NCBI GenBank assembly: GCA_030390025.1 | Contig: CM059431.1 | Span: 154,258,001-154,322,000, forward strand | Reading direction: 5' to 3' | Length of the DNA: 64,000 nt | Source of the DNA: Squalus acanthias | Lineage: Eukaryota | Part shown: in pieces, positions 30,821 through 54,540 of the stretch | Position numbering within the stretch: position 1 is the first letter of the stretch | Layout: every line of letters starts with the position of its first letter | Made by a program: the position numbers and the translations under genes | Notes under the pieces: model-generated | What the model saw: only the letters and a program-made list of their open reading frames with translations | Told to the model about the DNA's origin: nothing | Database searches by the model: none

Positions 30821-33429
30821 GATACATAGAAACATAGAAGATAGGAGCAGGAGTAGGCCATCCGGCCCTTCGAGCCTGCTCCGCCATTTAATGAGATCAT
30901 GGCTGATCCTCCAATTCAGTATCCCGTCCCCGCCTTCTCTCCGTAACCCTTAACCCCTTTTGGCTGTAGAAATATATCTAATTCCCTCTTAAATATATTT
31001 AATGAGCTGGCGTACACTGCCCTCTGTGGCAATGAGTTCCACAAGTTCACCACCCTCTGAGTGAAGAAATTCCCCCTCATTTCTGTCCTAAATGATTTAG
31101 CCCTTATCCTTAAATTATGTCCTCTAGTTCTGTTCTCACCCGCCAAGGGAAACATTCCTTCTGCATCTAGTCTGTCTAGACCTGTCAGAATTTTATACAC
31201 TTCTATGAGGTCCCCTCTCAATCTTCTAAACTCCAGTGTGTACATCCCTAAACTACATAGTCTCTCCTCATAGGTCAATCCCGCCATTCCTGGTATCAGC
31301 CTGGTGAATCGCCGCTGCACCCCCTCCATGGCAAGAACATCTTTCCTCAGATGAGGCGACCAAAACTGTACACAGTACTCGAGGTGTGGTCTCACCAGTG
31401 CCCTGTACAGCTGCAGCAAGGTATCCCTGTTCCTGTATTCCAACCCTTTTGCTATGAAGGCCAGCATACCGTTTGCCTTCTTGACCGCCTGTTGCACCTG
31501 CATGCTCGCCTTCAGTGACTGGTGTACAAGAACACCCAGGTCTCTCTGTACTTCCCCCTCTCCCAATTTATTGCCATATAAATAATAATTTGCCCTCCCG
31601 TTCCTGCACCCAAGGTGGATAACTTCGCACTTGTCCACATTATAGTGCATCTGCCATTTATCCGCCCAATCACCCAGTCTGTCCAAATCGCTCTGGAGCT
31701 TCCTGGTCTCCTCCTCTGAGCCCACCCCCCCTCCTAGTTTAGTGTCGTCTGCAAATTTGGAAATGCTGCATCCGACTCCCTGATCCAGGTCATTAATGTA
31801 AATTGTGAACAGCTGGGGACCCAGGACAGATCCCTGTAGTACCCCACTTGTTACTGCCTGCCATTCAGAAAATGAGCCGTTTATTCCAACTCTCTGTTTT
31901 CTATCTGACAGCCAGTTCTCTATCCACGTCAATACTTTCCCCTTTATCCCATGAGCTTCAATTTTCCATGCTAATCTTTTATGTGCGACCTTGTCGAAGG
32001 CCTTTTGGAAGTCCAGGTACACCACATCTACTGGCTCTCCCCCATCTATTTTACCAGTTACTCCCTCAAAAAATTCCAATAGATTAGTCAAGCACGATTT
32101 ACCCTTTGTAAATCCATGTTGACTCTGTCCTATCCTGTCCCCATTTGCTAAGTGCTCCGCTATTTCATCCTTAATGATGGACTCCAGCATTTTGCCCACA
32201 ACTGATGTAAGGCTTACAGGTCTGTAATTACCTGCTTTTTCCTTACCGCCCTTTTTGAATAGTGGGGTAACGTTAGCTACCCTCCAATCCATGGGCACTG
32301 TTCCCGAGTCTAATGAATTCTGAAAAATCATACTTAGTGCATCCGCTATCTCTAGGGCCACCTCCTGCAGTACCCTAGGATGCATGTTATGAGGCCCTGG
32401 GGATTTGTCCGCCTTCAATCCCTTTAGCTTCCTTAACACCATATCCTTAGAGATATTGATTTGCGTCAGTTCCTCCTTTGCCAATGTCCCTATTTTTCCC
32501 GATATCCCAGGGAGGTTTTTTGTGTCTTCCTTCGTAAAGACTGACCCAAAGTATGCATTTAGTTGGTCTGCCATTTCCTTATTTCCCGTTATATATTCCC
32601 CCGTATCTGACTGCAATGGACCAACTTTGGTTTTCACCAGTCTTTTCCTCTTGATATACTTATAAAAGCTTTTGGAGTTAGTTTTTATATTTTCTGCCAG
32701 CTTGCTTTCGTAAGCTATTTTGCCCCTCTTGATTAAGCCCTTTGTCCTCCTTTGCTCTATCTTAAACTGTTCCCAATCTTCCGCTCTGGCGCTTTTTTTG
32801 GCTATTTTATACGCCCTATCTTTGGATTTTATGCTGTCTCTAATTTCCCCTGTTATCCACGGTTGAGTCACCTTTTTAGATTTCCTTTTATGCCAGATTG
32901 GTATAAACAATTTTTGCAATTTTGTCATTCTATCTTTAAATGCTTGCCATTGTTTATCTACCTCCAGTCCTCCCAGGAACGTTGTCCAATCAGACCTACT
33001 CAGTTCCCGTCTAATGGCATCATAATTCCCCTTGTTTAAATTCAGGGCCTTAGTCTCTGAGTCAATTTCTTCGCTCTCCATTTCGAGTGAGAAATCGATC
33101 ATGTTATGATCGCTCTGACCCAAGGGTCCCCGTACAACAAGATTACTAATTAGTCCCTTCTCATTGCACAGTACCCAGTCCAATATAGCCTGTTCCCGAG
33201 TTGGTTCCTCGACATATTGATCCAGATAACCATCCCTTAAACACTCAAGGAATTCCTCCTCCTCATTATTTTTACTGATTAGGCTAGTCCAATCTATATG
33301 TAAGTTAAAGTCACCTATGATGACAGCTGTGCTCTTATTGCACGCTTCTCTAATTTCCCTCATGATGCCCTCCCCAACCTCTATTTTACTATTTGGAGGC
33401 CTATATACCACTCCTATTAATGTTTCTCG
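30821..33429 (-). mobile_element. Young CR1 LINE, 5'-truncated
   Basis: CATAGAAACATAGAAG tail; TACATA at both junctions (30815-30820, 33430-33435). Confidence 0.95.
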
Positions 33430-33441
33430 TACATAAAACAC
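30916..33441 (-). CDS. CR1 ORF2 (partial APE endonuclease plus reverse transcriptase), uninterrupted 841 aa
   Basis: GVVYRPP, GDFN, SDH, QHGF, YLDFQKAFD, QGSVLGP, KFADD and LEYCVQFWSP with no stops; first few residues come from the flank. Confidence 0.93.
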   Translation of the reverse strand: MFYVRETLIGVVYRPPNSKIEVGEGIMREIREACNKSTAVIIGDFNLHIDWTSLISKNNEEEEFLECLRDGYLDQYVEEPTREQAILDWVLCNEKGLISNLVVRGPLGQSDHNMIDFSLEMESEEIDSETKALNLNKGNYDAIRRELSRSDWTTFLGGLEVDKQWQAFKDRMTKLQKLFIPIWHKRKSKKVTQPWITGEIRDSIKSKDRAYKIAKKSARAEDWEQFKIEQRRTKGLIKRGKIAYESKLAENIKTNSKSFYKYIKRKRLVKTKVGPLQSDTGEYITGNKEMADQLNAYFGSVFTKEDTKNLPGISGKIGTLAKEELTQINISKDMVLRKLKGLKADKSPGPHNMHPRVLQEVALEIADALSMIFQNSLDSGTVPMDWRVANVTPLFKKGGKEKAGNYRPVSLTSVVGKMLESIIKDEIAEHLANGDRIGQSQHGFTKGKSCLTNLLEFFEGVTGKIDGGEPVDVVYLDFQKAFDKVAHKRLAWKIEAHGIKGKVLTWIENWLSDRKQRVGINGSFSEWQAVTSGVLQGSVLGPQLFTIYINDLDQGVGCSISKFADDTKLGGGVGSEEETRKLQSDLDRLGDWADKWQMHYNVDKCEVIHLGCRNGRANYYLYGNKLGEGEVQRDLGVLVHQSLKASMQVQQAVKKANGMLAFIAKGLEYRNRDTLLQLYRALVRPHLEYCVQFWSPHLRKDVLAMEGVQRRFTRLIPGMAGLTYEERLCSLGMYTLEFRRLRGDLIEVYKILTGLDRLDAEGMFPLAGENRTRGHNLRIRAKSFRTEMRGNFFTQRVVNLWNSLPQRAVYASSLNIFKRELDIFLQPKGVKGYGEKAGTGY

Positions 33442-34865
33442 AAAAAGTTAACATGCACGTGCAGCATGTAATTAGGAAGGCAAATTGAATGTTGGCCTTT
33501 ATTTCAAGTGGGATAGAGTATAAAAGTAGAGAAGTTTTGCTACAACTGTACAGGGCGCTGATGAGACTATACCTAGAGTACTGCGTACAGTTTTGTTCCC
33601 CTTATTTCAGGAGGGATTTACTTGCATTGGAGGCAGTTCAGAGAAGATTCAGTAGGTTGATTCCTGGGTTGCATTATGAGCAGGTTGGGCCTGTACTCAT
33701 TGGAGTTTAGAAGATTGAGAGGTGACCTTGTTTAAAAATATAAGATTCTGAGGGAGTTGGACAGGGTAGATGCTGAGAGGATGTTGCTCCTCGTGTGGGA
33801 ATCTAGAATGAGGGGGCATAGTCTCAGAATAAGGGGTCACGCATTTAAGAGGAAGATGAGGATGAATTTCTTCTCTCAGAGTGCCGTGAATCTTTGGAAT
33901 TCTTTACCTCAGACAGCTGTGAAAGCTGAGTCATTGAATATATTCAAGGCTGAGATAGACAGATGTTTGAGCAACAGGGTCGTCAAGGGTTAGGGGAACG
34001 GGCAGGAAAGTGGAATTCAGGAGAAAGTCGCATCAGCCATGATCTCATTAAATGGCGGAGCAGGCTCGAGGGACCGAATGGCCTGCTCCTGCTCCAATTT
34101 CTTATGTTATTATGATCTTATGTGTCCTTGTAGGAGTTGACAGTGCCTACAATCTATGTCGATCACACGGTTGAATGTTATGCCTTAGGCTCAAAGCCTG
34201 ACCAAACAAAGGAAGATTGTTTGCCCACACTTATCAGCTAAAACCTCACTTGCTGGAATATCTTCCAATCCATTTTACTCTTTAAACCTACTGTTGCTTT
34301 TCAGTGAATTTTATATTAATAAAATAAAGCAGGCCTACCTTCTGATTACACTTTCAAACTTCCAATAGAACGTTCTTCAATTAACATGCAAAAGCTAAAA
34401 TTTAACATTACTACGACATAAAAATTAACCCTTTCCCTACATTCCTCTCTTCATCTGCGTGCACTCGCATGTACAACCCTATAAATTATCTTTAAGACAC
34501 AAGCCGAATTCAAGTGGTCAGTCAGCACCAGCCACACAATATCTATTGAACACCTGAATAATGACCAGATTATATAAATTCTACAGTTCTCTCTCTGCTG
34601 TGCTTTCGACTAGAGATCAACATGGTAAGCTGGTTCATACATAGGTGCGACTGAACACCCTCTCTCAGGGCACATGCTTACCCACTTCATTCTGCTCTAG
34701 AAACTGTCACACAATAGAAGGGAGGCAAATGATAAATGCTAAAGTCTCACCACACTGCCGACACTGCCACTATGGATCAGGTTGCGGACGACGTCACAGA
34801 AAGCTATTCAGCTGTCAGGATCAGAGATGCCTAAGCCAGGCACTTGGCATACCATATTGAACTAT

Positions 34866-37345: not shown

Positions 37346-38099
37346 TGGGCCTGAATTTGCGGTCGTAGGCTTCCCACGGCCGAAGGCCTCTGAACCATAA
37401 TAAAAGTACCAACCTACCTGATGGTTCCGGAGTTGCGGACACTTGCACTCCTGGTCTTCTAGGCGTACACATGCGTAAAGTTTCACGCATCCTAGAGGCG
37501 CACGCGGTTCCCATGCACCCCTGGGATCATGTGGGCCAGGCCAGACAATCAAAAAGGGGATCCCCATTATGCTCATGGTGATTCCATTTACTTACGTAAT
37601 CCCTATAAGCATGAATAGAGATCCCCTAAAAAACACAACAACACACCAGTTAAATAAAAATAAATCATTACATGTTCAAAATTAATTAATGTGCAATTAA
37701 ATTAAGCAATAGAAACAATTACATTTTTGAAAATAACTGTCAACGTTTTAAAGGGGCTAAAATAACCTGTAACTAATTTTAAAGATTCTTATGTTTATAT
37801 AATTAAATATATATATTTTAATATTTATTTAAACTCTTACGCTGGTTAAAGAAGGCCCTACGCCTGCTTTTCCGAGGCTTAAGCGTTTCTCGGGCATTTG
37901 CTGCGCAGCAGTTGGGTAAATAGCCCAAACCTGCGCTGGCGAATATCCATTTCCCGGAAATGCGGATGATCTGTCAAGCTGAAACCTGACAGATCGCAAG
38001 TTCCGGGTTTTCGCGCATGTGCATCGCATGCGGAAACCCGGAAATTGTGGGACAATTACGGCCACGTACGCTGACATAGGCTCCGGAAAATCCGGGGCA
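37346..38099. mobile_element. Non-autonomous DNA transposon (MITE-like)
   Basis: Imperfect terminal inverted repeats GGGCCTGAATTTGCGG and CCGGAAAATCCGGGGC; AT-rich centre; internal hairpin 37997-38047. Confidence 0.55.
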
Positions 38100-38329
38100 T
38101 TATTTCTGTGCAGCAGCAATAGCTGATTGTTAATTTAATCCCGATATTATTAGTCACTTTAAGCGATTCTTTGCAAATTCCTTCTGCCATGTTATACTTT
38201 CTTGAACCACTTTATATCCCTTATAATAACACCTTTCCCCTGAAGATGTTACTCAATGCCTCGTATACCACAAATGAATGGCATAGTCTTAGCAAATATA
38301 TAGCTTATTTAAAATAGAAAAAATGTTGA

Positions 38330-38950
38330 ACGCACGTCAGAGAATGGTACGAAAAATAGAATGAGAGTAAAAAGGAGCTTTTACAGCCGGTGGCCAAAAG
38401 ATTGGCAAAAGAGGAGGATTTATAAAGTGACAGAAAGGAGGATAGGGAGGTGGAGAAGGGAAGAAAATACCTGAGAGTGTCGGCCTACGCGGCTGAAGAC
38501 ACAGGAACGTTTAGGGACCTTGGAGAGAACAGCACGCGGTTTAAACAATTACATTATCAACGAATTTGTTGGGCCATGGAACTGACTGTGCACACGAGGA
38601 CGGAATCAGGGGAACGGAGAGTTTTACGTGGGAAGTTGTGTTGCAGAATATTGCAGTGATAGGGAAGCGTGAAATTATATTCTGATTTAAACAAGAGGAT
38701 GAGAAATTTAAACTTCAGAGGCTAGAAGACTAGGTGCTCATGTAGGTCAACGAAGACCCGGTAATAAGAGAGAGCTGATCTGTGTTAAGATACGACCAGT
38801 AGAGTTTTGGATGAATTAACTCCTCTGGAGGGTAATGGATGGGAGGGTGCTAACAGAAGCATTATAGTAATGGTGTCTGGAGGTGACAAAGGCATGATTT
38901 ACTGTTTGAACGGAAGGTGGGCTGAAGTTTGGACCGTTTCAGAAACATGC
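38330..38950 (-). mobile_element. L2 LINE fragment, highly degraded
   Basis: Patchy similarity to L2 copies at 40730-41180 and 42150-43512. Confidence 0.5.
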
Positions 38951-39671
38951 GAGCGGCAGAAACCTGATTGTAAGGATCAGCAATCTGTTGAAGGAAGAAG
39001 TCTACAGATTTGTGAGACGATATCACGTCCAGTGATCATGGAGAGAATAACACGCGGATTAAACAATTAAACAACGAAATAAGTTATAGAAACGCTAAGT
39101 AGCCTTCGATTCCTGCCTGTGCTTTGGAAACGAAATGAATCATATGTCAAAATAGTTTTAAGAATTTGTTACTTATGATTGTTATTGAGCATACACGTGA
39201 GTGCAGGCAATACCGGATCATAATAAGTGTAGTAAAATATGAACGTGTGAGGTTCTGAAACTATTTATGAAAATGTGTCCAGCTGGCAACTTTCAGTCAT
39301 AACAAGTCTACGAATATTGCTGTTGAGTATCTGAATCTTTGTTTTTGTAATAGAGCTTCTCCGTGTGGTGACATCATGGCTGAGAACCCTAATGTGGGAT
39401 CCTGGAAATAAACAACCATCAAGGCAAAGATATGGCGCTCCCGTAGTTAGAATCAACTGGACGATGTTAATGTGTCCGAAATGAATGAACATCGGCGGAA
39501 ACAGTTAGGCGACCAATAGCATGATACCGCAAAAGGAATAGTCATCAATTACCGTGATTTGATCACGAACAATAAGACTCCGAAAGCAAACTACGACAGG
39601 CATAATACCCGTACAGGAACTGACAGAACCAATCGACAGCTGGTGATGCGGTTAAAAGCCTCAACACAGAA

Positions 39672-39912
39672 ATGGAACAAAGGTTTCATACCAGGACCGA
39701 ATCTCATGGCAATATATCTACAAAGAGCAGCCCCGTCAGTGCCAAAATTGAAAGGTCTAAACAGGAACAAGAGCAAAATACTCCGACAGAAACTCTGCGC
39801 AGCACGGATAGTTACAGTGCCATCAGCCAGACACACAGAGTGAATGTAGATCTACATCCGGGGCTGGAAGAAAAATCTCCCGGCGGATATGACAGACGCG
39901 TACGCACATCCG
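39672..39912 (+). CDS. Putative first coding exon (A1) of an NLR-type death-fold gene or pseudogene
   Basis: Kozak-like gaaATGG; MEQRFH...SPGGYDRRVRTS; donor G|GTGAG (phase 1) conserved in paralogous exons ending 50681 and 53343; upstream acceptor at 39352-39353. Confidence 0.6.
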
Positions 39913-40430
39913 GTGAGATTACTCTTTGCGTTGAAATTGTAAACCGCCCGTATTTAAACATAATCCAGCAAACCTCAATCTGTGTTTTCAGTCTCTTCTC
40001 ATTCTGTGGTGAATTCCCACTGATCTGAAACTGTAAACTCTTTTATCATCATATTGTGGTAAATTATAATGTGAATGGTACAGAAATCTTCACATTTCAT
40101 TCTTGTAATCATACCAAATCTTACACTCAATCTTGTTTCATCCATGTTTTCTGAGGTGAGATATGTATGACGCCTCGGCTTTTGGTTAACTTGAAAAATC
40201 ACCGACCACTTTGCCTGTGTTCTTGAATTATATAAATTCACTATTATAACTGTTAAATGCAACTTTATTGAAAACAAGTGTCAGCCGCATCTGTTTCTTC
40301 TATCTCTCGCTGATCCCTTGCCAAAACTGTTCCTAAAACTTCATAAATATATTACTTATCGACAAAAGTGCAGATTACAGTTATTGTGGCATTCAGGATT
40401 ATTCCTTTCGCGTTCCTCGCTCGACTGTAG

Positions 40431-40596
40431 ATGCTGGGGCACAAATCGAGGACGTTCTGGACAGTTTCAGAGACGTTGAACTCCGTAGAATCACATATTT
40501 TACCATCGGAGATTGGAAGAAGCTATTGAAGAAATTGTTGATAGTGTTGTCTTGACGTTATTGATTGAAGACATCATTGATGACAGCGAATATCAG
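40431..40596 (+). pseudogene. Exon B1: first half of a CARD-like death-fold domain, with a 1-nt frameshift
   Basis: ctgtag|...CAG|gtacat; reads DAGAQIEDVLDSFRDVELRRITYF-YHRRLEEAIEEIVDSVVLTLLIEDIIDDSEYQ if one T is restored in the T-run 40498-40501. Confidence 0.7.
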
Positions 40597-40729
40597 GTAC
40601 ATTAGATACCAGGGATTAGGTCATTTAACGATTTCAAACTGAAATGTGAAAGAATATTCAGAATCAAAGGGACATTGCAATTCAGTTCCGGGATTTTGGG
40701 ATCCACTGCAATCGTTTCGTTACCGAACA

Positions 40730-41180
40730 GCAACATTAACTTGCATTTATATAACGTCTTTAACGTCCCACGACGCTGCACAGGAGAGTAATCGACAAAA
40801 AAGATGACACCGAGCTAAAGAACATTAGGACAGGCGACCAACCGCTTGGCCAAAGAGCTAGGTTATAAGCAGCATCTTAAAGTAATAGAGTTCGTCGGAG
40901 AGGCAGAAAGCTTTAGGTAGGGAATTCCTGAGGTTAAAGACCAGATTCTGAACGCACGACAGCAGGTGGTGATGCGAAGGAAGCAGTGGATGCACAAGAG
41001 GTCAGAGATTTAGGAATATTCTTTTCTCGGAGGGCTCTAGGGCTGTAGGAGTTTACAGAAATAGTGAGTGTCAAGGCCAAGGAGCGATTTCAAAAAGAGA
41101 ATGAGAGTTTTAAAATCTAGCCTTTTGTAGACCGGGAGCCAATGTAGGTCAGCGAGCAGAGGGGGCGTGGATGAACCGGT
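40730..41180 (-). mobile_element. L2 LINE 3' end
   Basis: AACTTGCATTTATAT tail; ORF 41037-41264 TPPLLADLHWLPVYKRLDFK. Confidence 0.8.
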
Positions 41181-42149
41181 TCTAAGATTCATTTTCAATG
41201 CTGAAGATCTGTTTATGTAACATTTCCTCATAAACATGATATTTGGAAGTAGGCTGGTCGTCATTCTCTGTATGACTTCTAGGTCTTGGATGTTTCCTCT
41301 TTGCTTCGATAATCAGAACTGAATCAGGTACCCGAATTGTGGCCTCGCCATAATGCATTTCAGCGTCTGCACGACAGTCTCAGAATTCTTATTTAGTTAA
41401 ATAAATTAGCAGGCTCGTTGCTTTACGGATAGCCATTAGGCGATATTTTGGCATGGTGGCAAGTGGATTTTTGGCGGTCATGTTCCATGCCAAAGCTGCG
41501 TGTTGGTAAATTGTACACCGTTGTGTATGTGCAGTTACTTACTGTGAATGTAAATTCCTGATATGTGGTCCCAGGAGTTCGACTCCATCTAGGTTCTGAA
41601 TTTTTCCCTGTTGTCATGTTGAGACTATTAGCACTCCAAGATCTCTCCGTCTCACCCCGCCACCCTGCAAGTTACAGGCCATCAATTGAATATCTGTTTA
41701 ATTTCCAATCTGCCCATCTCGCAACAATGAATTTCACCTACAAAAATGCTATCCATATTCTGAAGTTCCACGGCTGCCTCATCCATCTCAACGCTAACTC
41801 CTAATGCAATATGATTTTTCGAATTTTGATCAATTTACTTTGCATTTCACCATTCAGGTAGTTTATACTAAATAGAATTAGTAGCAGGTGATAAAGATCT
41901 TTAGAATACTTCAATCAATTATTCTACCCTAAAATCACTCACCTTACTCGTGTGATTGATTCCTCCGTTTCACACAATTGCTTATCAATTACAAGATCCA
42001 GCAGATAGCTTGTGAACGTGGTTTTCATGTGAAAATTGAAGGGAGGTTTAAAAATAGTAAAACTAACCTATCATCGGGCTCCCATCGTGGGCTTCCTTAC
42101 ACTGGTCAGTAAGGTTAGCAGACAGAAATTCACTCCTTTGAAAATAATT

Positions 42150-43512
42150 GCCCAGGTTATACTCGTGTTGTCGCCTCCCAAATCCATATCCATCTTTCCA
42201 GCAACATCATTTTGAACACCTAGTGTCGGGATTCTGCCCCTGCCACAGTATTGGAACGGTCCACAACAAAGTTACAAATAACATCCTATGTGACTGTTCC
42301 CTCTGTGAACTATCCTCCCTCAATTGTCTCGACATCTCTGCAGCCTTTGACACGGTTAACCATACCATCGTCTCCAGTGATTCCCCGTCGTTGTTCAGCT
42401 GGGTGGGACAGCCCTCACCTGTTTCCATTCTTATCCATCCAGTCGAAGCCAGAGAATCTCCTGCAATGGCCTCTCTTATCGATACAGCACCGTTACCTCT
42501 GGAGTACCCCAAGGGTTCTTCGTTTCCCCACACTTTTTTCTCAACTACATGGTGTCACTTGGTTACATCTTACGAAAGCACAATCTCAGTTTCCACATGT
42601 ACGCTGATGACACTGATTTCAACCTCCGCTCCACCTCTCTCAACCCCTCCAAAGACACTGCTTTGTCTCTCTACTTGTAAATCTGCCAATATGGGATGTG
42701 CAAAAAAGGTCCTCCAATGAAATATTAGGAAGACTCGGTGCCTTGATTCCCCGTAACAAAATCCTTTCCCTAGCCACCGTCTCCTTCCCTGTCGCTGGCC
42801 ACTGTCACAGGCTGAAATAGGCTTTTCGCAACCTTGGCGTCGTGTTAGATCCTAAGTTGAGCTTCCGACCCCATAGCCAAGACGACTGCCTCTACCTCAG
42901 TAAGATGCCTTTTCCTCCCGCCGCAGCCCAACAGCTGCTGGAAAACTTATCCATAATTTTTATTACCTTCAGATTTGAACATTGCAATGCTCTCCTGGCC
43001 GCAACCCCAAATTCCATACTCCTTAAACCTGAAGTTATCTCAAACTGTTCTGCCCGTAGCCTAATTCGCAAGAATCCCGTTCACCCCACTGCCTGCTGAC
43101 CTACATTTACTCCTGCTCCTTCAATTTAAAATTCTCATGGTACAGTTCAAATCATTCCCGTGTCTAACCCCTCTCCTCTCAACAACACCGTCCTTCTACC
43201 GTCCGAGTTCTCCGCTAATCTCCAATCCTGTTCTGTTGTGCATCAACGAATTCCATCCCCCCACCATTGCTGGCCGTGCCATTAGCTGCCCAGGGCCAAA
43301 TCTCTGGAATTCCTTCCCTAACCGTCTCCGCCTCTCCATCTATCTCTCCTCCTTTAAGGCGCTCCTTAAAACCTAACTCTTTGATCAAACTTTTGGTCAC
43401 CTCTCCTAGCATGCCCTAATGTTGCTCCTTGCCGAATGACTCTGATTCCTGTGACGTGCCTTGGAATGTTTTATTGCGTTAAAATCACTTTATAAATGCA
43501 AGTTGTTGCTGT
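42150..43512 (+). mobile_element. L2 LINE RT to 3' end, degraded
   Basis: SGFCPCHS, KVTNNIL, LDISAAFDTVNH, GPNLWNS, SFKALLKT; tail TATAAATGCAAGTTGTTG. Confidence 0.85.
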
Positions 43513-44163
43513 TCGTAATACTCGCAGTTTTGTTTACCCAAGTGATGGATTCAAATACGTTTACAATTTGTTATTGTTTTGAATTAGTGGTTCAATCCTA
43601 TCTTGCTTTCAGTCCACTGCTGCCTCTCGTATTGAATCGCTTCCTCCTTGAATGTCATTTCTTTCGAGTTTGCATTCTCTTGGTGTGGTGCATCATATTC
43701 ATTCCATGAAATATTTGTTTCATTAACGATCTATTCCGTGCTAATCATGTTACACGTCGTTAAATTCCGCTTCAGCATTATTTGGTGAGTGAATGGTTCA
43801 ATCGATGTATTGATTTATTGGTCTAACCGCCCATCAATCTATCTGTCTATCGATCTATTGATGTAGATATGACATGAAATCATGTAAAATAAAAATGTAG
43901 GGCAAGAAAATAACTGCAAATGCTTGAAAGCTGAAATTAAAACAAAAAAGCTCTCGACATATCGTCATGAATTGTTGTTAGCTCAACTACAGGGTGTGTC
44001 TATTACTAGCTGATTGAGTAAAATAAATAGCCATTGCATACGGAAGTGGAATGTCTGCATGTGAAACAACTGCTCTGGAAATATTCGTCTTACAAGTTTT
44101 ATGCATACTTGATGTGGTGCACCTCAAGATGTTGGGTTGACTCTTTCTGCATTTTGAATCCAG

Positions 44164-44329
44164 CAAGTCAGGGAACTAACGGAAAAACAACAGAGGAACA
44201 AAGCTTCCAAATTCCTTTTAGATAAAGTGATCAGAGATAAAGCACTGAGAGCAGTGTCGGAAATATTTGCGAACAAGTATGGTGGGACGCCAAAGCTGAG
44301 AGAAATACTGGAAGAAATACAACGAAATG
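44164..44329 (+). CDS. Exon C1: second half of the CARD-like death-fold domain
   Basis: Pyrimidine-rich tract then atccag|; open frame QVRELTEKQQRNKASKFLLDKVIRDKALRAVSEIFANKYGGTPKLREILEEIQRN; G|gtatta; phase 0 to 1. Confidence 0.75.
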
Positions 44330-44589
44330 GTATTAATTACTTCATTTGCACTGCATTTAACCGTTTAAATATATTTCCTAAATACCACGTGTAGTATTCT
44401 ATTGATGGTAAATCAGAATCATACATTTCTCAACAGGTTTCAATCTGCAATATAAAAAAATCTGCAGCCAAATACCGGCAAAAAAACCGCGTTATTTAGA
44501 AGGTACGTGGTGTTTAAACATTTCATGTTCAATTAAACCGCTCTTAAGTTAATATTAAAGAATATAATATATATATGGACAGAATATAA

Positions 44590-47035
44590 AAAAAACAGCA
44601 AAGAATGAATTAAAGATTAATAAGGAGAGAAAAATTTGCGTACGAGAGAAAGCTAACTAGAAATATAAAAATATATAGTAAGTGTTTCTATATATATTTA
44701 AAAAAGAAAAGAGTTAACAAAGTGAGCGTTGGTCCTATACAAAGTGAGTCTGGGGAATTAATAATGGAAAATAAGGAGATGGCAGTTGAATTGAACAGGT
44801 ATTTTGCATCGGTCTTCACTATAGACGATACAAGTAACAGCCCAGAAATGGCTGTAGATCAGGAAATGGAAGGGAGGGAGGAACTCAAGAAAATTCTAAT
44901 CACCAGGGAAGTAGTACTGAGCAAATTGTTGGAGCTGCGGGCTGACAACTCCCCGGGTCCTGATGGACTTCATCCGAGAGTCTTACAATAAGTCGCTAGT
45001 GAGATAGTTTATGCGTTGTATTTAATTTTACAAAATTCCCTAGATTCGGGAAAGGTTCCTTTCGATTGGAAAATAGCGAATGTTACTCCTTTATTCAAAA
45101 AAGGAGGTCGACAGAAAGCAGGAAACTACAGGCCAGTTAGCTTAACATCTGTCGTAGGGAAGATGGTAGAAGTTATTATTAAAGACGTTATAGCAGGGCA
45201 TGCAGTAAAGTTCAAAGTAATAAGGCAGAGTCAACATGGTTTTGTGCAAGGGATATCATGTTTAAACAATTTATTGGAGTTCTTTGAAGAAGTAACATGT
45301 GCTGTGGATAAAGGGGAACCGGTGCATGTACTGTACTTCAATTTCCAGAAAGCATTTGATAAGTTGCCACATCAAAGGTTATTGCGGAAAATAAAAGCTC
45401 ATCATGTAGGGGTAACATATTGGCATGGATAGAAGGTTGGCTAGCTAACAGGGACCAGAGCGTATGCATAAATCTGTCATTTTCTGATTGGCAAGATGTA
45501 ACGAGTGGTGTGCCACAGGGATCAGTGCTGGGGCCTCAACTTTTTACAATTTATATAAATGACTTGGATGAAGGGACCGAAGGTATGGTTGCTAAATTTG
45601 CTGATGACACAATGATAGGTAGGAAAGTAAATTGTGAAGAGGACATAAGGAGGCTTCAAAGGGATATAGATAAATTAAGTGAGTGGGCAATGATCTGGCA
45701 AATGAAGTATAATGTGGGAAAATGTGAATTTGTCCATTTTGGCAGGAAGAATGAAAAATAAGCATATTATCTAAATGGTGATAGATTGCAGAGATCTGAG
45801 ATGGAGAGGGATCTGGGTGTCCTCGGCATGAATCGCAAAAGGTTAAAATGCAGGTACAGCAAGTAATTAGGAAAGCTAAAAGAATGTTATCGTTTATTGC
45901 GAGGGGAATTGAATACAAAAGTAGGGAAGTTATGCTTCATTTATACAGGGCATTGGTGAGATGACATCTGGAGTACTGTGCACAGTATTGGTCTCCTTAT
46001 TTAAGGAAGGATGTAAATGCGTTGGAAGCAGTTCAGAGAAGGTTTACTAGACTAATACCTGGAATGGGCGAGTTGTCTTATGAGGAAAGATTGGACAGGC
46101 TAGGCTTCCATACGCTGGAGTTTAGAAGCATAGAAGCATAGAAGCATAGACGATAGGAGCAGGAATAGGCCATTCGGGCCCTCGAGCCTGCTCCGCCATT
46201 TAATGAAATCATGGCTGATCATCCAAATTCAGTACCCTGTCCCTGCTTTCTCCCCATATCCCTTGATTCCTTTAGCCTTATGAAATATATCTATCTCCTT
46301 CTTGCATATATTTAATGAATTGGCCTCAACTGACTTATGTGGTAGAGAATTTCACAGGTTCACCACTCTCTGGGTGCAGAAATTCCTCCTCATCTCAGTC
46401 CTAAATGGCTTACCCCTTATCCTTAGACTGTGACCTCTGGTTCTGGACTCCGCCGCCATCGAGAAGATCCTTCCTGCATCTAGTCCGTCTAGTCCTGTTA
46501 GAATTTTATAAGTTTCAATGAGATCCCCTCTCATTCTTCGAAACTCTAGCGAATATATGCCTAATCGACCCAATCTCTCTTCATACGTCATTCCTACCAT
46601 CCCAGGTATCAGTCGGGGAAGAATAAGAGGTGACTTGATTGCAACATATAAGATCCTCAGGGGTCTGGACAGGGTGGATGTGGATAGGATGTTTCCTCTT
46701 GTGGGAGAATCTAGAACTAGGGGTCATTGTTTTCAAATAAGGCGTCGCCCATTTAAGACAGAGATGAGGAGAATTGGTTTCTCACAGAGGGTCATGAGTC
46801 TTTGGAACTCTCTTCTTCAGAGGGCGGTGGAAGCAGAGTCTTTGAATACTTTTAAGGCAGAGGTAGATAGTTTCTTGGTAAGCAAGGGGGTGAAAAGTTA
46901 TCGGGTGCAGACAGGAATGTGGAGAAATCGGATCAGCCATGATCTTATTGAATGGCGGAGCAGGCTCGAGGTGCCGGGTGGTCTACTCCTGCTCCTAATT
47001 TGTATGTTCGTATGTATGTATGTATGTTCGTATGT
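44590..47035 (+). mobile_element. CR1 LINE split by an antisense CR1 3' end
   Basis: ORFs 44722-45761 with RT motifs; resumes ~46618; (TATG)n tail. Confidence 0.92.
46123..46613 (-). mobile_element. CR1 3' end (~490 bp)
   Basis: (CATAGAAG)n tail; ORF 46352-46600; highly similar to 26359-26840. Confidence 0.92.
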
Positions 47036-47261
47036 AACGATATTGGAATTATATATCGCGTCTCGTAACCTCATTGGTTACCACAATGCCATATATATAT
47101 AATATATAATATTATATTCATAATGATTACTAATTTTTCAACTTTTCCTCTTGGCTTTACTAATTATTTAATGCAGTGGAAGAGATTTCTAAAAACGTCT
47201 TCTGAAGTATCGCCTGTTATTATAACTACTCCACTGTTTTAATTCCACCTGTATTTTATAG

Positions 47262-47431
47262 TGGATGATATTACTGGAGTTGCACCAACTGTATCGATAG
47301 ACACTGTCACTCGACAATCCAAAGCTACAGAATTGTTTCGGTATAGAATATTTGAAATTATTGAAGATTCTGTGGCTGCTATCAGTAAAAATCTGCCTAA
47401 TATTAATGTTTCCGTTCGAATAGAACTTGAG
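47262..47431 (+). CDS. Exon B2: duplicated death-fold first half
   Basis: tattttatag|TG...GAG|gtatgg; 170 nt; phase 1 to 0; DDITGVAPTV...TELFRYRIFEIIEDSVAAISKNL...IELE. Confidence 0.65.
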
Positions 47432-48282
47432 GTATGGCTGACATAAATTGAACTGGACCTAGTGTATACTAATGTAGAACTGATTAGTCTTCTATTGTTT
47501 AAATATAAGAAAAAAATTTTACGCTTTCTTGTCCTGTCTTTTCTGAAGTAGCCGTGTTTCACTGAGTAATCGTTACATGGGACACCGCTCCCTCTACGAC
47601 ATTTTACATGAGCGAAAAGGATGATTGCTGAGATTCCCACTTCCTTAACTAATGTCTGCTCGGGTGCATCGCAGATGCTAATTTTGACAGTTTTTCTCCC
47701 CGCACAATATGCGGAGGCATCTCAGTGATTCGGGATCAGCACTGTTCTGAAAGTGCTATTTGATCGACTTCCGTGTTCATCACCAACAGCCACTGCACTT
47801 CGATATTCAGGAATATCGGATTTACTGGAAGCTGTGGAATATATTAAGATATTCAGGAAGATCTCTTTTCAGATCAGACCGCATTAATGCTCGTTGTTTT
47901 TTTCTCCAGAATAACTTTGAGCAAAGCGTCAATCATAGTTCTGTCCCTTATTTTACTAGAATAGGGATATGTCCTTTCGGCCGACTAACTTAATAACCCC
48001 TTGGTCATGTCCCTCCCCTCCAGGCCCAACACTGAGACTGGATCTGCCTCCTTTCCTCTAGACCCAACTCTTACCCTGAATGTGTAGCTGCACCTCCAAT
48101 CAGAAGTCTTGCATTATATCTGCATTCTCGCTGCTAATCACGAACTGTTAATTGCATTCCAGTCGCCACCCCAATCTTCAATCTTATTCTGTTACGCCCA
48201 CTACTCTCCGACTTGCTTCCAATGTTGCACTTTCCTTGGCTTCAGGATGTATCTACTTAAATCGAGATATCCTCTGAAGGTT

Positions 48283-49782
48283 CTCCAGTGTGTACATCCC
48301 TAAACTACATAGTCTCTCCTCATAGGTCAATGCCGCCATTCCTGGTATCAGCCTGGTGAATCGCCGCTGCACCCCCTCCATGGCAAGAACATCTTTACTC
48401 AGATGAGGCGACCAAAACTGTACAGAGTACTCGTGGTGTGGTCTCACCAGTGCCCTGTACAGCTGCAGCAAGGTATCCCTGTTCCTGTATTCCAACCCTT
48501 TTGCTATGAAGGCCAGCATACCGTTTGCCTTCTTGACCGCCTGTTGCACCTGCATGCTCGCCTTCAGTGACTGGTGTACAAGAACACCCAGGTCTCTCTG
48601 TACTTCCCCCTCTCCCAATTTATTGCCATATAAATAATAATTTGCCCTCCCGTTCCTGCACCCAAGGTGGATAACTTCGCACTTGTCCACATTATAGTGT
48701 ATCTGCCATTTATCCGCCCAATCACCCAATCTGTCCAAATCGCTCTGGAGCTTCCTGGTCTCCTCCTCTGAGCCCACCTCCCCTCCTAGTTTAGTGTCGT
48801 CTGCAACTTTGGAAATGCTGCATCCGACTCCCTGATCCAGGTCATTAATGTAAATTGTGAACAGCTGGGGACCCAGGACAGATTCCTGTGGTACCCCACT
48901 GGTTACTGCCTGCCATTCAGAAAATGAGCCGTTTATTCCAACTCTCTGTTTTCTATCTGACAGCCAGTTCTCTATCTACGTCAATACTTTCCCCTCTATC
49001 CCATGAGCTTCAATTTTCCATGCTAATCTTTTATGTGAGACCTTATCGAAGGCCTTTTGGAAGTCCAGGTACACCACATCTACTGGCTCTCCCCCATCTA
49101 TTTTACCAGTTACTCCCTCAAAAAATTCCAATAGATTAGTCAAGCACGATTTACCCTTTGTAAATCCATGTTGACTCTGTCCTATCCTGTCCACATTTGC
49201 TAAGTGCTCCGCTATTTCATCCTTAATGATGGACTCCAGCATTTTGCCCACAACTGATGTACGGCTTACAGGTCTGTAATTACCTGCTTTTTCCCTACCC
49301 CCCTTTTTGAATAGTGGGGTAACGTTAGCTACCCTCCAATCCATGGGCACTGTTCCCGAGTCTAATGAATTCTGAAAAATCATACTTAGTGCATCCGCTA
49401 TCTCTAGGGCCACCTCCTTCAGTACCCTAGGATGCATGTTATCAGGCCCTGGGGATTTGTCCGCCTTCAATCCCTTTAGCTTCCTTAACACCATATCCTT
49501 AGAGATATTGATTTGCGTCAGTTCCTCCTTTGCCAATGTCCCTATTTTTCCCGATATCCCAGGGAGGTTTTTTGTGTCTTCCTTCGTAAAGACTGACCCA
49601 AAGTATGCATTTAGTTGGTCTGCCATTTCCTTATTTCCCGTTATATATTCCCCCGTATCTGACTGCAATGGACCAACTTTGGTTTTCACCAGTCTTTTCC
49701 TCTTGATATACTTATAAAAGCTTTTGGAGTTAGTTTTTATATTTTCTGCCAGCTTGCTTTCGTAAGCTATTTTGCCCCTCTT
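48283..49782 (-). mobile_element. Internal CR1 RT fragment lacking both ends
   Basis: Same-length match to 31231-32730 with scattered substitutions; no 3' UTR or tail. Confidence 0.93.
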
Positions 49783-50575
49783 AGAAGCGCAATTTACCTA
49801 TATTCCAGCTTTCCTATGTGTACGGGACTTACATTTATTGATTGTGCTTCAACTGTCCTGCACATGTTCGTGCTGCGAATCCTGATCATCTCTGCGCAGA
49901 GTTGCCTCATCAGATGTGTGTGAATTTTACTTTAAAACTAGCCCATCCCGATGATCCATCTTCTCTTGAAGAGAAAATCAGACTTTTGGGATCATTTCGA
50001 CTACAGCTTTCGGAATCTCATCTTATCAAACAATTTCCTTGCCTTTCTTCTCTTCGGTTTTGCTTTATGATAGGCATTACTATTTATGTCTACCTTAACT
50101 GTCGTACCACCGCCTTGGGGAAATACCCTTTGTTTAATCCCTCGCTGTATAGTGCACCTTTCCTCATATCTCCATGTTCATCCTGTATCTTAAAAAGGTT
50201 ATCTAGTTTGCTCTTAAAATTTCCCAATTTCTAATTTAGGATAGAGCTATTAAATAATTTGTTAATCCTGAATTCACGCATTATCTTGCTCGCCAGTCTC
50301 ATACAATCATGGAACAAAACAGTACAGAAGATGGCCTGTCGGCCAAAATGCCTTTGCTGGCTCTTTGAACGTGTGATCTAATTAGCTTCATTGCAACAGG
50401 TCTTTAAGTTTCCGCTCGATTTTATGGCCAACAATCACCTCGAATGTATATTGGGAAACAAAAATAACCCGGACCTATTACAGATGCTTCCCCCAATTAA
50501 ACTTGGTCGTTATGCCCGTGCGAGCTCATTTATTTACAATACAACTGTGTGATTGAATGATCATTTTCTTTTCAG

Positions 50576-50681
50576 CAATGTGGACAACTTTGGGGAAAGA
50601 CTCACAGAAAGGAAGCTGCTAACCTCCTTCTCGAAACGCCGATAGAACCAGGCGGATATGGCAGAAGTACAGACACATCCA
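50576..50681 (+). CDS. Chimeric exon (C-type 5' part plus A-type 3' part)
   Basis: ttttcttttcag|QCGQLWGKTHRKEAANLLLETPIEPGGYGRSTDTS A|gtgaga; 106 nt; phase 0 to 1; no stops. Confidence 0.65.
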
Positions 50682-51775
50682 GTGAGAATAGTCTTTGTGT
50701 TGAACTGATATATCCGCTTGTCTTTAAATTCAATCCAGTGAACCTCAATCTGTGTTTTCAGTATCTTCTCCTTTGTTGTGGATTCCGACTTATCGGAGAC
50801 TGTTAACTCATATCTATGACATAGAGGTAAATTATACACTAAATGCTAAAAAAAAAGGTTAAGGATTCTCGTCTTGTCCCTCTGCAAAATTTACACTCAA
50901 CCTTGGTTCAAACATGGCTGTCCGTTTGTTTTCTCGGCGAAACTGACTGTGACGTCTGAATTTCTGGTTAACTCGATCCATCTAACCGGCGGTTGTAAAA
51001 GGATCCTCTGCTGACTGCCAACAAAAGATAAGTTTAAAAAAATATACTTACCTGAATGTGGAGCCAATAATTTCAGGAGTTCCCCACTTGGTTCCATCTT
51101 AAAACTATGAGACATTGTCCGTCACTAAACCGATTGCGTCTCTCACTCTCCCTTTCGTTGCCTCCCTCCCTCTTCTAGCGGTCAACCCCTCCCTCCCTCT
51201 GCCGACCACTTCCCTCCCGCCCTCACCCGATAGTCCCTCCTTCCCGATCACTTTCTCCTCTCCCAGTCGCCTGTGCCGAGAGAGTCGACGTTTAAATTAT
51301 CAGCACCAAGCAAGCTGCCTCGGTAGACTCAGCAGGTGGCTGCACATCGCCGCTCTGATGTAAACGAGGCCCGGGGCCTAATATAGAGTGCGTCTCAGGC
51401 CAACCCTTTACGGTGCAGGGGTCGTTACCAGCGGTAAGTTTGGCTTCGTGTGTAAAATGTACGATAGCCAATGAAAAATACTAGCAAATGTAATTAATGG
51501 AAATAAAAACCTTGAGATATGTAAATGTTGCTGCCTATTTCCTTTACCAGGTTTTGAATTATGTCCCAAAGTCACAATTACAGACCCTCGACCCCCACCG
51601 CCCATTTCACGCTGCCGGCACAAACCAATTCCTAGGCCAGTGTCGATAATTTCACTGATTGTGCTTTAAGCCTTCACCCTGCCGTGTGCTTATGGTGATG
51701 CAGCGGCTGCATGCAGTAACCTGCCGTGTATCCCATTGCACCAGAGTACAGTTTAACAATCAATAAATAAAATAA

Positions 51776-51872
51776 GCAGATAGACAGATGAATATATTGA
51801 AAACAGACAGATTGATAGAGAGACAGAGAGACAGCCAGACAGCGAGACAGGTGGACAGACAGAAATACAGAT
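51776..51872 (+). repeat. Degenerate (GACA/GATA/GAGA)n simple repeat
   Basis: Visible in sequence. Confidence 0.75.
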
Positions 51873-52021
51873 ATATTCATATTGATTATTAAGTATTTGA
51901 CATTCCCTCTTCGTTTTATGGATTATTTTGTTGCAGTGCAAGAGATTTCTAAGTACATCTTCCAAATATCGTCCTTTAATGTAACTACTCCGATATATTT
52001 TGTTCCACTTGTATTTTATAG

Positions 52022-52191
52022 TGGATGATATTACTGGAGTTGGACCAACTGTATCGCCAGACGCTGACACTGATAAATCCAACAATACCGAATTGTATCG
52101 GGATAGAAAACTTGAAGGTATTGAAGAGTCCATGGACGGTGTCAGTGCAAATCTGTTTAATAAATATGTAGTCTTTCGGAAAGAATATGAG
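52022..52191 (+). CDS. Exon B3: duplicated death-fold first half
   Basis: tattttatag|TG...GAG|gtatgt; 170 nt; DDITGVGPTV...TELYRDRKLEGIEESMDGVSANL...KEYE. Confidence 0.68.
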
Positions 52192-53216
52192 GTATGTTTG
52201 ACATAAATGGAACAGGACCTCTCTTAATCTATGGTAGAAATGTTACATGAGGAAAACGTATGATTGCCAAGATTTCCACTGCCTTACCTAATTTCCTCTC
52301 GGCTGTGTATCAGACGCTAATTTTGATCGATTATTCTTACACCGAAAATAACGCAGAGGCCAGACAGTGAACTGGATCCAGCACTGCTCTGCAAGAGCAA
52401 AGATTAATTTTGAAAGAATTAAGATACATCATGTTGGCCGAGTAACTAAATAATCCCTTGATCATGCCCCTTCCTCCATGCCCAACAGTTAGACTGCATC
52501 TGCTTCCTCACCTCTAAAGCCAACGCTTACATTGCTTTTATAGCTTCGCCTCCAAGCAGACGACTCCGATTGTATCTTCACCCTCGGCTCTAATCACCAA
52601 CGGATATATTGCATGTTAATAGTCACTACAATCTTTATCTTATTCAGTTTCGCCCGCCACTCTCCGACTTACTTCCAGTTCCATCATTCTTGCCTCCGTA
52701 ATTTGGGGCCATGAATCTACTTAGATCGAGATTTAGTCTAATGTATTGAATTCGAAATTTACCGAGGCTCCCAGGTTTTCTACGGCTAGTGGATTACATG
52801 TATTGATTATGCTTCAACTCTCCTGCCCCTGTTTGTGCAGCGACTCCTGCTCACCTCGGCTCAGAGCTCCCTCATCTGACTTGGGTGAATTGGACTTTAC
52901 AAACTCTCTTAGCCGGATTATACAAGTAATTGATTTCTTAAAGAGAAAATCAGACTTTTGCGATTACGTCGGCATCATTTTTAATTAATTCACCATGTTA
53001 AATAACTTTATTATCGGTATTGCCTTTGTTGATTTCGCTTTTGCGATTATGATGGACGCCACAATATATGTCTACACTATCTGGCGTACCTCCGCCCGGG
53101 GACTCTCAATGTATCATTGTCTGTTGCTGCACCGGCTCGGGAAATTTGTGGCTCATACAGTTCAGTAACCGGAAAATCAGCTCTATTATATCTAATCATA
53201 TTTTTGCTATAATCAG

Positions 53217-53343
53217 AAACAACAGGAAAATGCTCCAGCAGAAACTTTTATAATCACGGATACTTACAGTGACATCAGCCTCACTCACACAGTAAATTAA
53301 GATCTAGGAGCCGGCGGATATGACAGAAACGCGCAGACATCTG
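53217..53343 (+). pseudogene. Exon A3 (paralog of A1) with in-frame TAA at 53298-53300
   Basis: taatcag|KQQENAPAETFIITDTYSDISLTHTVN*DLGAGGYDRNAQTS G|gtagga; aligns with A1 EQEQNTPTETLRSTDSYSAISQTHRVN...GGYDRRVRTS. Confidence 0.6.
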
Positions 53344-53844
53344 GTAGGATTACTCTTTTATTTGAACTGATATATCCAACAATGTTTGTATGCATCCAGT
53401 AAATCTCAGTTTTTAGTCTCTTCTCATTCTGTTGTGGATTCTGACATATCTGAGACTTTTAACTCATGAACTGCAACAACAACAACGTGCATTTATATAT
53501 CGCCTTTAACGTAGTAAAATGTCCCAAGGCGCTTCACTGGAGTATTATATATACCATTGAGGTAAATTATACACTCAATGCCACAGAAAGCTTCAGACTT
53601 TACGTCTTGTCACTCTGCCCGATTTTGCAGTCTACTTTATTTCAAGGCGTTCCGCTTGCTTTCTCCGTTAAAGTGTCTGTGACGGCTGAAGGTACGGTTA
53701 ACTCGTTCTATCTAACACCCTGTCGATAAAGGGACCTCTGCAGTCCACCACCAAATGAAAGGTTTTAAGAAACAAATAATTCCTGTATGTAGAGCCAATG
53801 ACATCAGTAGTAGTAGCGATAATGGGTAGGTACCCAAATTGGCA

Positions 53845-54540
53845 GGAATTTGGGGCCTAAACTATTCATAGTATTTATTAACGACTTAGATGATGGCATA
53901 GAAAGTGACATATCCAAACTTGCCGATGACACAAAGATAGGCGGCATAGTAGGCAGTGTAGATGAAAGCATTACATTACAAAGGGATATCGGTAGATTAG
54001 TGAAAGGACGAAACGGTGGCAAATGGATTTCAATGTAGGCAAATGAGAGGTCATCAACTTTGGACCTAAAAAAGATAGAACAGGGCACTTTCTAATTGGT
54101 GAAAAGCTAAAAGCAGTGGAGGTCCACAGATATTTGGTGTCCAGGTTCATAGATTATTAAAATGTCATGACCAGGTACAGAAAATATTCAAAAACGCTAA
54201 TGGGATGCTGATCTTTATATCCAGAGGACAGGAATACACGAGGGTAGAAGTTATGCTGCAGCTGTACAAAGCCCTGCTTAGACCACACCTGGAGCACTGT
54301 GAGCAGTTCTGGGCACCACACCTTAGGAAGGATATATTGGCCTTGGAGGGAGTGCAGCGTAGATTTACCAGAATGATACACAGACATCAAGTGTTTAAGT
54401 TACAAGGAGAGATTACACAAATTAGGGTTGTGTTTCATAGAATTTAGAAAGTTAAGGGATGATCTCATCGAAGTGTTCAAGATATTATGGGGAACAGAAA
54501 GGGTACATAGAGAGAAAGTATTTCCCTTGGTTGGGAATGC
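53845..54540 (+). mobile_element. CR1 fragment
   Basis: FINDLDDG, KLADDTK, LEHCEQFWAPHLRKD. Confidence 0.88.

Follow-up and report, generated by a model that had tools for sequence, protein, structure and literature searches.

Do seven exons of Squalus acanthias that carry CARD-type modules, with no NACHT exon near them, encode a CARD-only regulator, or do they belong to a decaying NLR gene? The exons lie on the plus strand at 39672–53343 of a 64,000-nucleotide window, the whole stretch of DNA analyzed here (contig CM059431.1, hereafter C7, 154,258,001–154,322,000, of a 3.7-Gb genome); positions above 64,000 are counted onward from window base 1. An earlier note on this DNA had left both answers open. 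We conclude that the seven exons are probably the front half of a CARD-NACHT-LRR receptor locus of this shark that has become a mosaic pseudogene, and that they probably give no working protein. The decaying NLR paralogue that the note had considered agrees with a frameshifted CARD, a lost start codon, a nonsense stop and a broken NACHT exon that follows, with LRR exons, on the same strand. The same frameshift, lost A1 start and a3 nonsense codon, together with the same-strand NACHT exon and the two LRR exons downstream, speak against a NACHT-less CARD-only regulator.

RESULTS

Exon structure and lesions

The exons are referred to as A1, B1, C1, D1 (B2 in the earlier note), X (the exon at 50576), D2 (earlier B3) and a3 (earlier A3). 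Inspection of the window sequence revealed GT donors at all seven proposed segments and AG acceptors at six; at 39672 A1 has no AG. The segments are 241, 166, 166, 170, 106, 170 and 127 bp long, and their phases are compatible only when one base is added in B1. With this single base the spliced model is exactly 367 amino acids long, as the note had estimated for one restored T, but the missing base lies outside the T homopolymer. The product as assembled has 121 amino acids and ends after about 23 CARD residues. Modules of the family come in only two phase types, 1-0 and 0-1. Matching phases are therefore expected by descent; exon shuffling keeps the frame without selection, and the compatibility of phases is thus no sign of a new working gene.

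Alignment with paralogues revealed that the segment 39672–39912 is the open 3′ part of a longer exon A1 (39348–39912), the low-complexity N-terminal exon of an NLR subfamily. The family start codon is at 39376, and the ATG at 39672 is internal to the exon. Stop codons are present at 39409, 39448 and 39517 (codons 12, 25 and 48 after the family ATG), a frameshift near 39630, and the acceptor is changed from AG to TG. Exon A is open in four of the five aligned paralogues. The codon-12 stop, TAA in the window and TGA in one paralogue, may be either ancestral or independent in the two. Nine ATGs precede 39672 within the exon, one of them opening a 65-codon frame that overlaps the 39672 frame. Upstream of A1, at 38087–39415, non-coding blocks are colinear with five paralogues at 67–77% identity and probably represent a promoter or a 5′ untranslated exon.

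B1 (40431–40596), the first half of a CARD-type domain, has lost a base after 40495, which leads to a stop within the exon. The lost base occupies the column just before a T run; four of five paralogues have G or T there and the fifth has C, and the T4 run itself is of the expected length. A homopolymer slip as the cause of the frameshift is disfavoured by this placement. C1 (44164–44329), the second half of the domain, is open, with an in-frame 6-nt deletion and a Trp-to-Ser change at a site conserved in the family. D1 (47262–47431) and D2 (52022–52191) are decayed CARD first halves, both open; in D1 former core positions are polar. Exon X (50576–50681) is a chimera of a C-type start and an A-type 3′ end. 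The last exon, a3 (53217–53343), repeats the 3′ end of exon A in short form. A nonsense TAA at 53298 stands in place of the GAA of its nearest copy, and its GT donor is intact. In total the window holds three stops, one frameshift and a lost acceptor in A1, one frameshift in B1 and one stop in a3.

The seven exons contain a single whole CARD

To establish domain identity we used a profile built on 107 N-terminal domains; these came from 97 of 120 NLR proteins of sharks and rays, and 200 shuffled sequences served as control. B1+C1, read with an unspecified residue at the break, scored 87.7 bits (shuffle maximum 6.9), and the two exons singly scored 42.8 and 33.3 bits. This bears out the earlier identification of B1+C1 as the two-exon N-terminal death-fold domain of shark NLRs. 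D1 (8.4 bits), D2 (14.7) and X (6.2) each scored above all 200 shuffles, in line with the proposed descent of D1 and D2 from a B exon. A1 and a3 stayed at shuffle level on the CARD-type profile, and a3 gave no match to the C half. D1+X spans profile positions 22–84 of 117 (23 bits) and D2+a3 positions 23–61. Nine of 14 hydrophobic core positions are kept in D1/D2, compared to 12 of 14 in B1.

The suggestion that exon X begins like a C exon also held: its acceptor and the 20 codons that follow agree with genuine C-type exons of four other loci in the cluster. Its 3′ end and donor match A-type exons, with the junction near 50635–50650. Two or more complete CARD units are thus absent from the seven exons, and the sole whole CARD is the frameshifted B1+C1; the tandem CARD-like modules of the earlier note reduce to this one, with D1, D2 and X partial and A1 and a3 without CARD match.

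The fold was tested on residues 19–135 of a relative, P0094 of Cetorhinus maximus, and not on the window peptide. The model had a mean confidence (predicted local distance difference test) of 89. Its top structure matches were the CARDs of NLRC4, SP100, ARC and NOD1, nearly tied with NLRC4 best (Z 11.6); Z values of 11.4–11.6, at a root-mean-square deviation of 1.6–3.0 over 80–96 aligned residues, lie below the Z of 13 under which caution is due for helical bundles. With Foldseek the best E value was 0.46, which is not significant; CARDs lead the ranking. Pfam CARD was above cut-off in one of four full-length relatives (P0090), below it in P0004 and absent from P0002 and P0094; Pfam gave no match for single window exons. 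Protein searches with the single exons C1 and D1, weak by design, found no match either. The modelling indicates that the family N-terminal domain has a six-helix CARD fold.

A broken NACHT exon and two LRR exons follow on the same strand

With the 120 shark NLR proteins as queries, no NACHT or LRR remnant was found at E<0.05 in bases 1–78,600, in agreement with the note, which saw no NACHT exon in the window. Further downstream the exon series continues on the plus strand. An A exon, A4, at 78646 is open over 178 amino acids and is followed by spacer-type exons D (80505), a (81968), D (82942) and a (84656, to 84778). CARD half-exons come next: B′ at 112550 with a frameshift, C′ at 116615 with its donor changed from GT to GC, and a second B′ at 140245. 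No C′ exon was found between this B′ and the NACHT exon. The NACHT exon, which the note had proposed to look for, lies 81 kb past the window edge on the same strand (144883–145732 and 150492–151375). It is broken by frameshifts, stops and a 4.8-kb insertion with the open reading frame of a long interspersed nuclear element (LINE). Two LRR exons, at 153680 and 154049, follow it. The NACHT exon is 56–63% identical to the closest seven annotated shark NLRs.

The presence of a same-strand NACHT exon and of LRR exons after it is the arrangement of the shark NLR family. The intact reading frame of a functional NLR was not found: stops or frameshifts interrupt A1, B1, a3, B′ and NACHT, and the locus is therefore classed as a pseudogene of this family. 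Phases would permit a single transcript in which the seven exons are joined to the downstream NACHT; alternatively, they may be an orphan head, with the next A exon as the start of a separate gene.

Between a3 and A4, just beyond the window, there are two frames of 545 and 800 codons on the minus strand that resemble those of long terminal repeat retrotransposons, a class to which we presume they belong. The same interval was searched for a terminal exon with a membrane anchor. Four hydrophobic candidates on the plus strand, compared to one on the minus strand, do not support such an exon, and none matches the three hydrophobic segments of shark NLRs.

A probable mosaic of paralogous segments

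Bases 38,000–44,563 are colinear with simple A-B-C-NACHT genes; in these the NACHT exon begins about 400 bp beyond that point. Bases 47,110–50,647 are colinear with the D-C unit of another paralogue type, and bases 50,650–54,083 with a-D-a units, in which the next exon elsewhere is B′. The junctions fall at 44563–47110, in a LINE-derived block (44564–47110) that sits at the switch between two paralogue types, and at 50635–50650, within X. These switches in colinearity suggest that the window is a mosaic of three paralogous segments, which would most simply have arisen by unequal recombination and deletion in a tandem cluster.

Most long open frames in the window are presumably of LINE type. 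An 843-codon frame on the minus strand at 30916–33447 encodes a LINE endonuclease/reverse transcriptase, and a near-identical partial copy of it lies at 48253–49797, inside the D1–X intron. Inside the C1–D1 junction block, at 46154–46997, two oppositely oriented LINE pieces make up an inverted repeat that is imperfect (64% over 861 bp).

Genome-wide scoring gave at least 95 NACHT matches, many of them on C7 and most in long open frames. Thirteen paralogous regions were compared. Ten lead to a same-strand NACHT exon, two run without NACHT into the next A-initiated unit, which has one, and one is still in CARD exons at the end of the DNA examined. The exon order of the window locus recurs in one of the 13, at C7:155.894–155.841 Mb, as A-B-C-A-D-a-D-a-D-a-B′-C′-NACHT-LRR-LRR with an open 1722-bp NACHT. 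Its first A is broken, its second A lacks the ATG and the usual acceptor, and the rest is open.

This paralogue, open from its second A exon to the LRRs, and phases that would let A1 to a6 be joined to B′ and C′, are what could be expected if the locus were a working giant multi-CARD NLR and its lesions were assembly errors. However, more than 10 separate errors would be required, including substitution stops, the missing C′ exon and the 4.8-kb insertion, and in the same assembly long open frames contain most of the 95 scored NACHT matches. We regard a working giant receptor as highly improbable.

Other parts of the cluster show related arrangements. The NLR locus at C7:155,427,734–155,521,500 combines about nine CARD modules and four copies of the D-a repeat with an open 1728-bp NACHT and two LRR exons, and is a candidate for an intact receptor with many CARDs. 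At C7:154.777–154.821 and 155.590–155.622 Mb lie front units whose A exon is broken and which contain three CARD-type modules; like the window locus, they have no NACHT of their own, and the next NLR that starts with an A exon follows after about 40 kb. Open copies of the 177-codon exon A stand in tandem at the head of NLR loci, two at C7:154,865,069–154,867,232 and three at 155,664,467–155,668,285. One paralogue has a partly inverted exon A, at C7:158,200,248–158,200,647.

Open frames downstream of the lost start

Several observations weigh against a simply dead locus. The lesions are unevenly distributed: the first 99 codons, out of 481, contain four of the six (p about 0.02, post hoc). The neutral probability that the A1 3′ part, B1, C1, D1 and D2 all remain free of stops is about 0.04. 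Both the C1 deletion and the X junction preserve the frame, and the B1 deletion is known from the assembly alone. The 39672 frame may accordingly have outlived the dead original start and stayed in use for a time; the segments may, alternatively, have derived recently from working genes, which would also account for the open downstream stretches. The ratio of nonsynonymous to synonymous substitution rates (dN/dS) on B1+C1 is 0.81 for the window lineage (9 nonsynonymous, 3 synonymous changes) and 1.1 and 4.1 for two of three paralogue lineages; on these alignments it is not discriminating.

The concentration of lesions upstream of 39672 and the need for only one base to obtain the 367-residue frame would fit a NACHT-less CARD-plus-spacer protein, a decoy resembling CARD-only proteins (COPs), that runs from 39672 to the a3 stop and was active until recently or is active in alleles without the B1 deletion. 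Also in its favor are polyadenylation-type hexamers at 54156, 54569 and 54714 and the existence of three further front units without NACHT in the cluster. Yet the one complete CARD carries a frameshift, at a site that is not a homopolymer, and there is no intact single death-fold domain of the kind that CARD-only proteins have. Where the window has the ATG at 39672, the closest open paralogue reads CCG and another reads ATA. The stop is a GAA-to-TAA change within an exon of internal type whose donor is intact, more exons of the family lie beyond it, and a dedicated gene end after the domain was not found; the other NACHT-less front units have broken A exons too. Such a protein is unlikely. Equally unlikely is the course of events it implies, in which, after the original start had died, the internal ATG gave a NACHT-less decoy that was ended by the a3 stop and worked in alleles without the B1 deletion.

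For 39340–40620 no RNA data set was listed. Three same-species read sets in contig form, which we guess to be RNA, cover repeat-derived parts, with zero depth at the A1 start, C1, D2 and a3 bins; in 39300–53400 no exon-exon joint was present among the 15 joints listed of 53, which speaks neither for nor against expression. A transcript that skips B1 and C1 would be open without any added base, as A1-D1-X-D2-a3, from 39672 to the a3 stop, and would give a spacer-like frame of about 256 amino acids without a complete CARD; alternatively, the locus may yield a non-coding RNA. The openness of the skipped form, however, follows from shared exon phases and descent from working genes, nine ATGs lie upstream, and the exon set A1-D1-X-D2-a3 was seen in none of the 13 paralogous regions. 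We consider both possibilities improbable as well, and retain the pseudogenised front half as the preferred interpretation of the locus.

A decayed CARD half-exon is kept open in the cluster

Throughout C7:154.3–158.2 Mb, D exons alternate with short A-type exons. Twenty copies of the D exon were collected and 18 of equal length compared, two with deletions being dropped; two more diverged copies, one apparently truncated, were also left out. A stop was present in one of the 18 copies, compared to 11.4 expected neutrally on their tree, and none of 1,700 neutral simulations, which start from natural exons and ignore indels and gene conversion, had one or fewer stop-bearing copies. AG/GT edges are kept in 17 of 18 copies, and mean dN/dS is 1.1. 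The D exon is likely a module that is held open while its sequence is free to change, and that is reused as a spacer.

D exons match the 120 NLR proteins only as weak CARD halves. Exon A had no match in these 120 shark and ray proteins or, with its intact form as query, in 1.84 billion cluster representatives or in the Atlas. Literature searches on shark NLRs, which did not cover supplements, turned up no paper on these N-terminal spacer exons.

DISCUSSION

Recruitment through CARDs, with sensing and oligomerisation by NACHT and LRR, is the established NLR mechanism. In working relatives of the locus the CARDs would recruit a CARD-bearing partner and the NACHT and LRR parts would sense and oligomerise, while the A and D-a exons would supply an extended polar spacer at the N terminus that is probably disordered.

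As a dead copy, the locus is of value mainly for annotation. It demonstrates birth-and-death turnover and exon shuffling in a multi-megabase shark NLR cluster, and it shows that a NACHT exon missing from view can be a window-edge effect where genes exceed 100 kb. Cluster-wide, a CARD half-exon has been copied, has lost hydrophobic core residues and is kept open, presumably as a repeated spacer before one to many true CARDs, which would make it a clear example of a domain half-exon reused as a linker. Were the window locus a decoy after all, it would be a shark CARD-only inflammasome regulator derived from an NLR independently of the primate COPs, and would belong to a set of several front units in the cluster that lack NACHT.

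The human CARD-only CARD16, CARD17 and CARD18 and the PYD-only POP1–4 arose by exon duplication beside the parent cluster, and POP4, encoded by a pseudogene and containing only two helices, shows that a partial domain can act (PMC7555848). The COPs described there are intact, expressed single CARDs (PMC7555848); the window, in contrast, has a frameshifted CARD and no evident terminal exon. In the whale shark, an NLRP-related NLR family is expanded in a lineage-specific manner and rapid birth-and-death turnover has been proposed (PMC8455134). The parts of that account consulted do not describe N-terminal exons (PMC8455134). The at least 95 NACHT matches found here resemble it in family expansion.

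The closest known systems are elasmobranch NLRs annotated as 'NACHT, LRR and PYD domains-containing protein 3/12-like', which have the two-exon CARD-type N-terminal domain in common with the window locus. Identity to these proteins reaches 62% for the B1 stretch and 42% for C1. Examples are P0002 of Mustelus asterias, with three CARD-type repeats, P0090 of Scyliorhinus torazame, with five, and P0004, as well as P0003–P0008 of Heterodontus francisci and P0094 of Cetorhinus maximus. Tandem CARD repeats before NACHT are already present in five of the 97 domain-bearing annotated shark and ray NLRs. The window locus differs from these relatives in that its copy is broken and in that its exon A has no counterpart among the 120 proteins.

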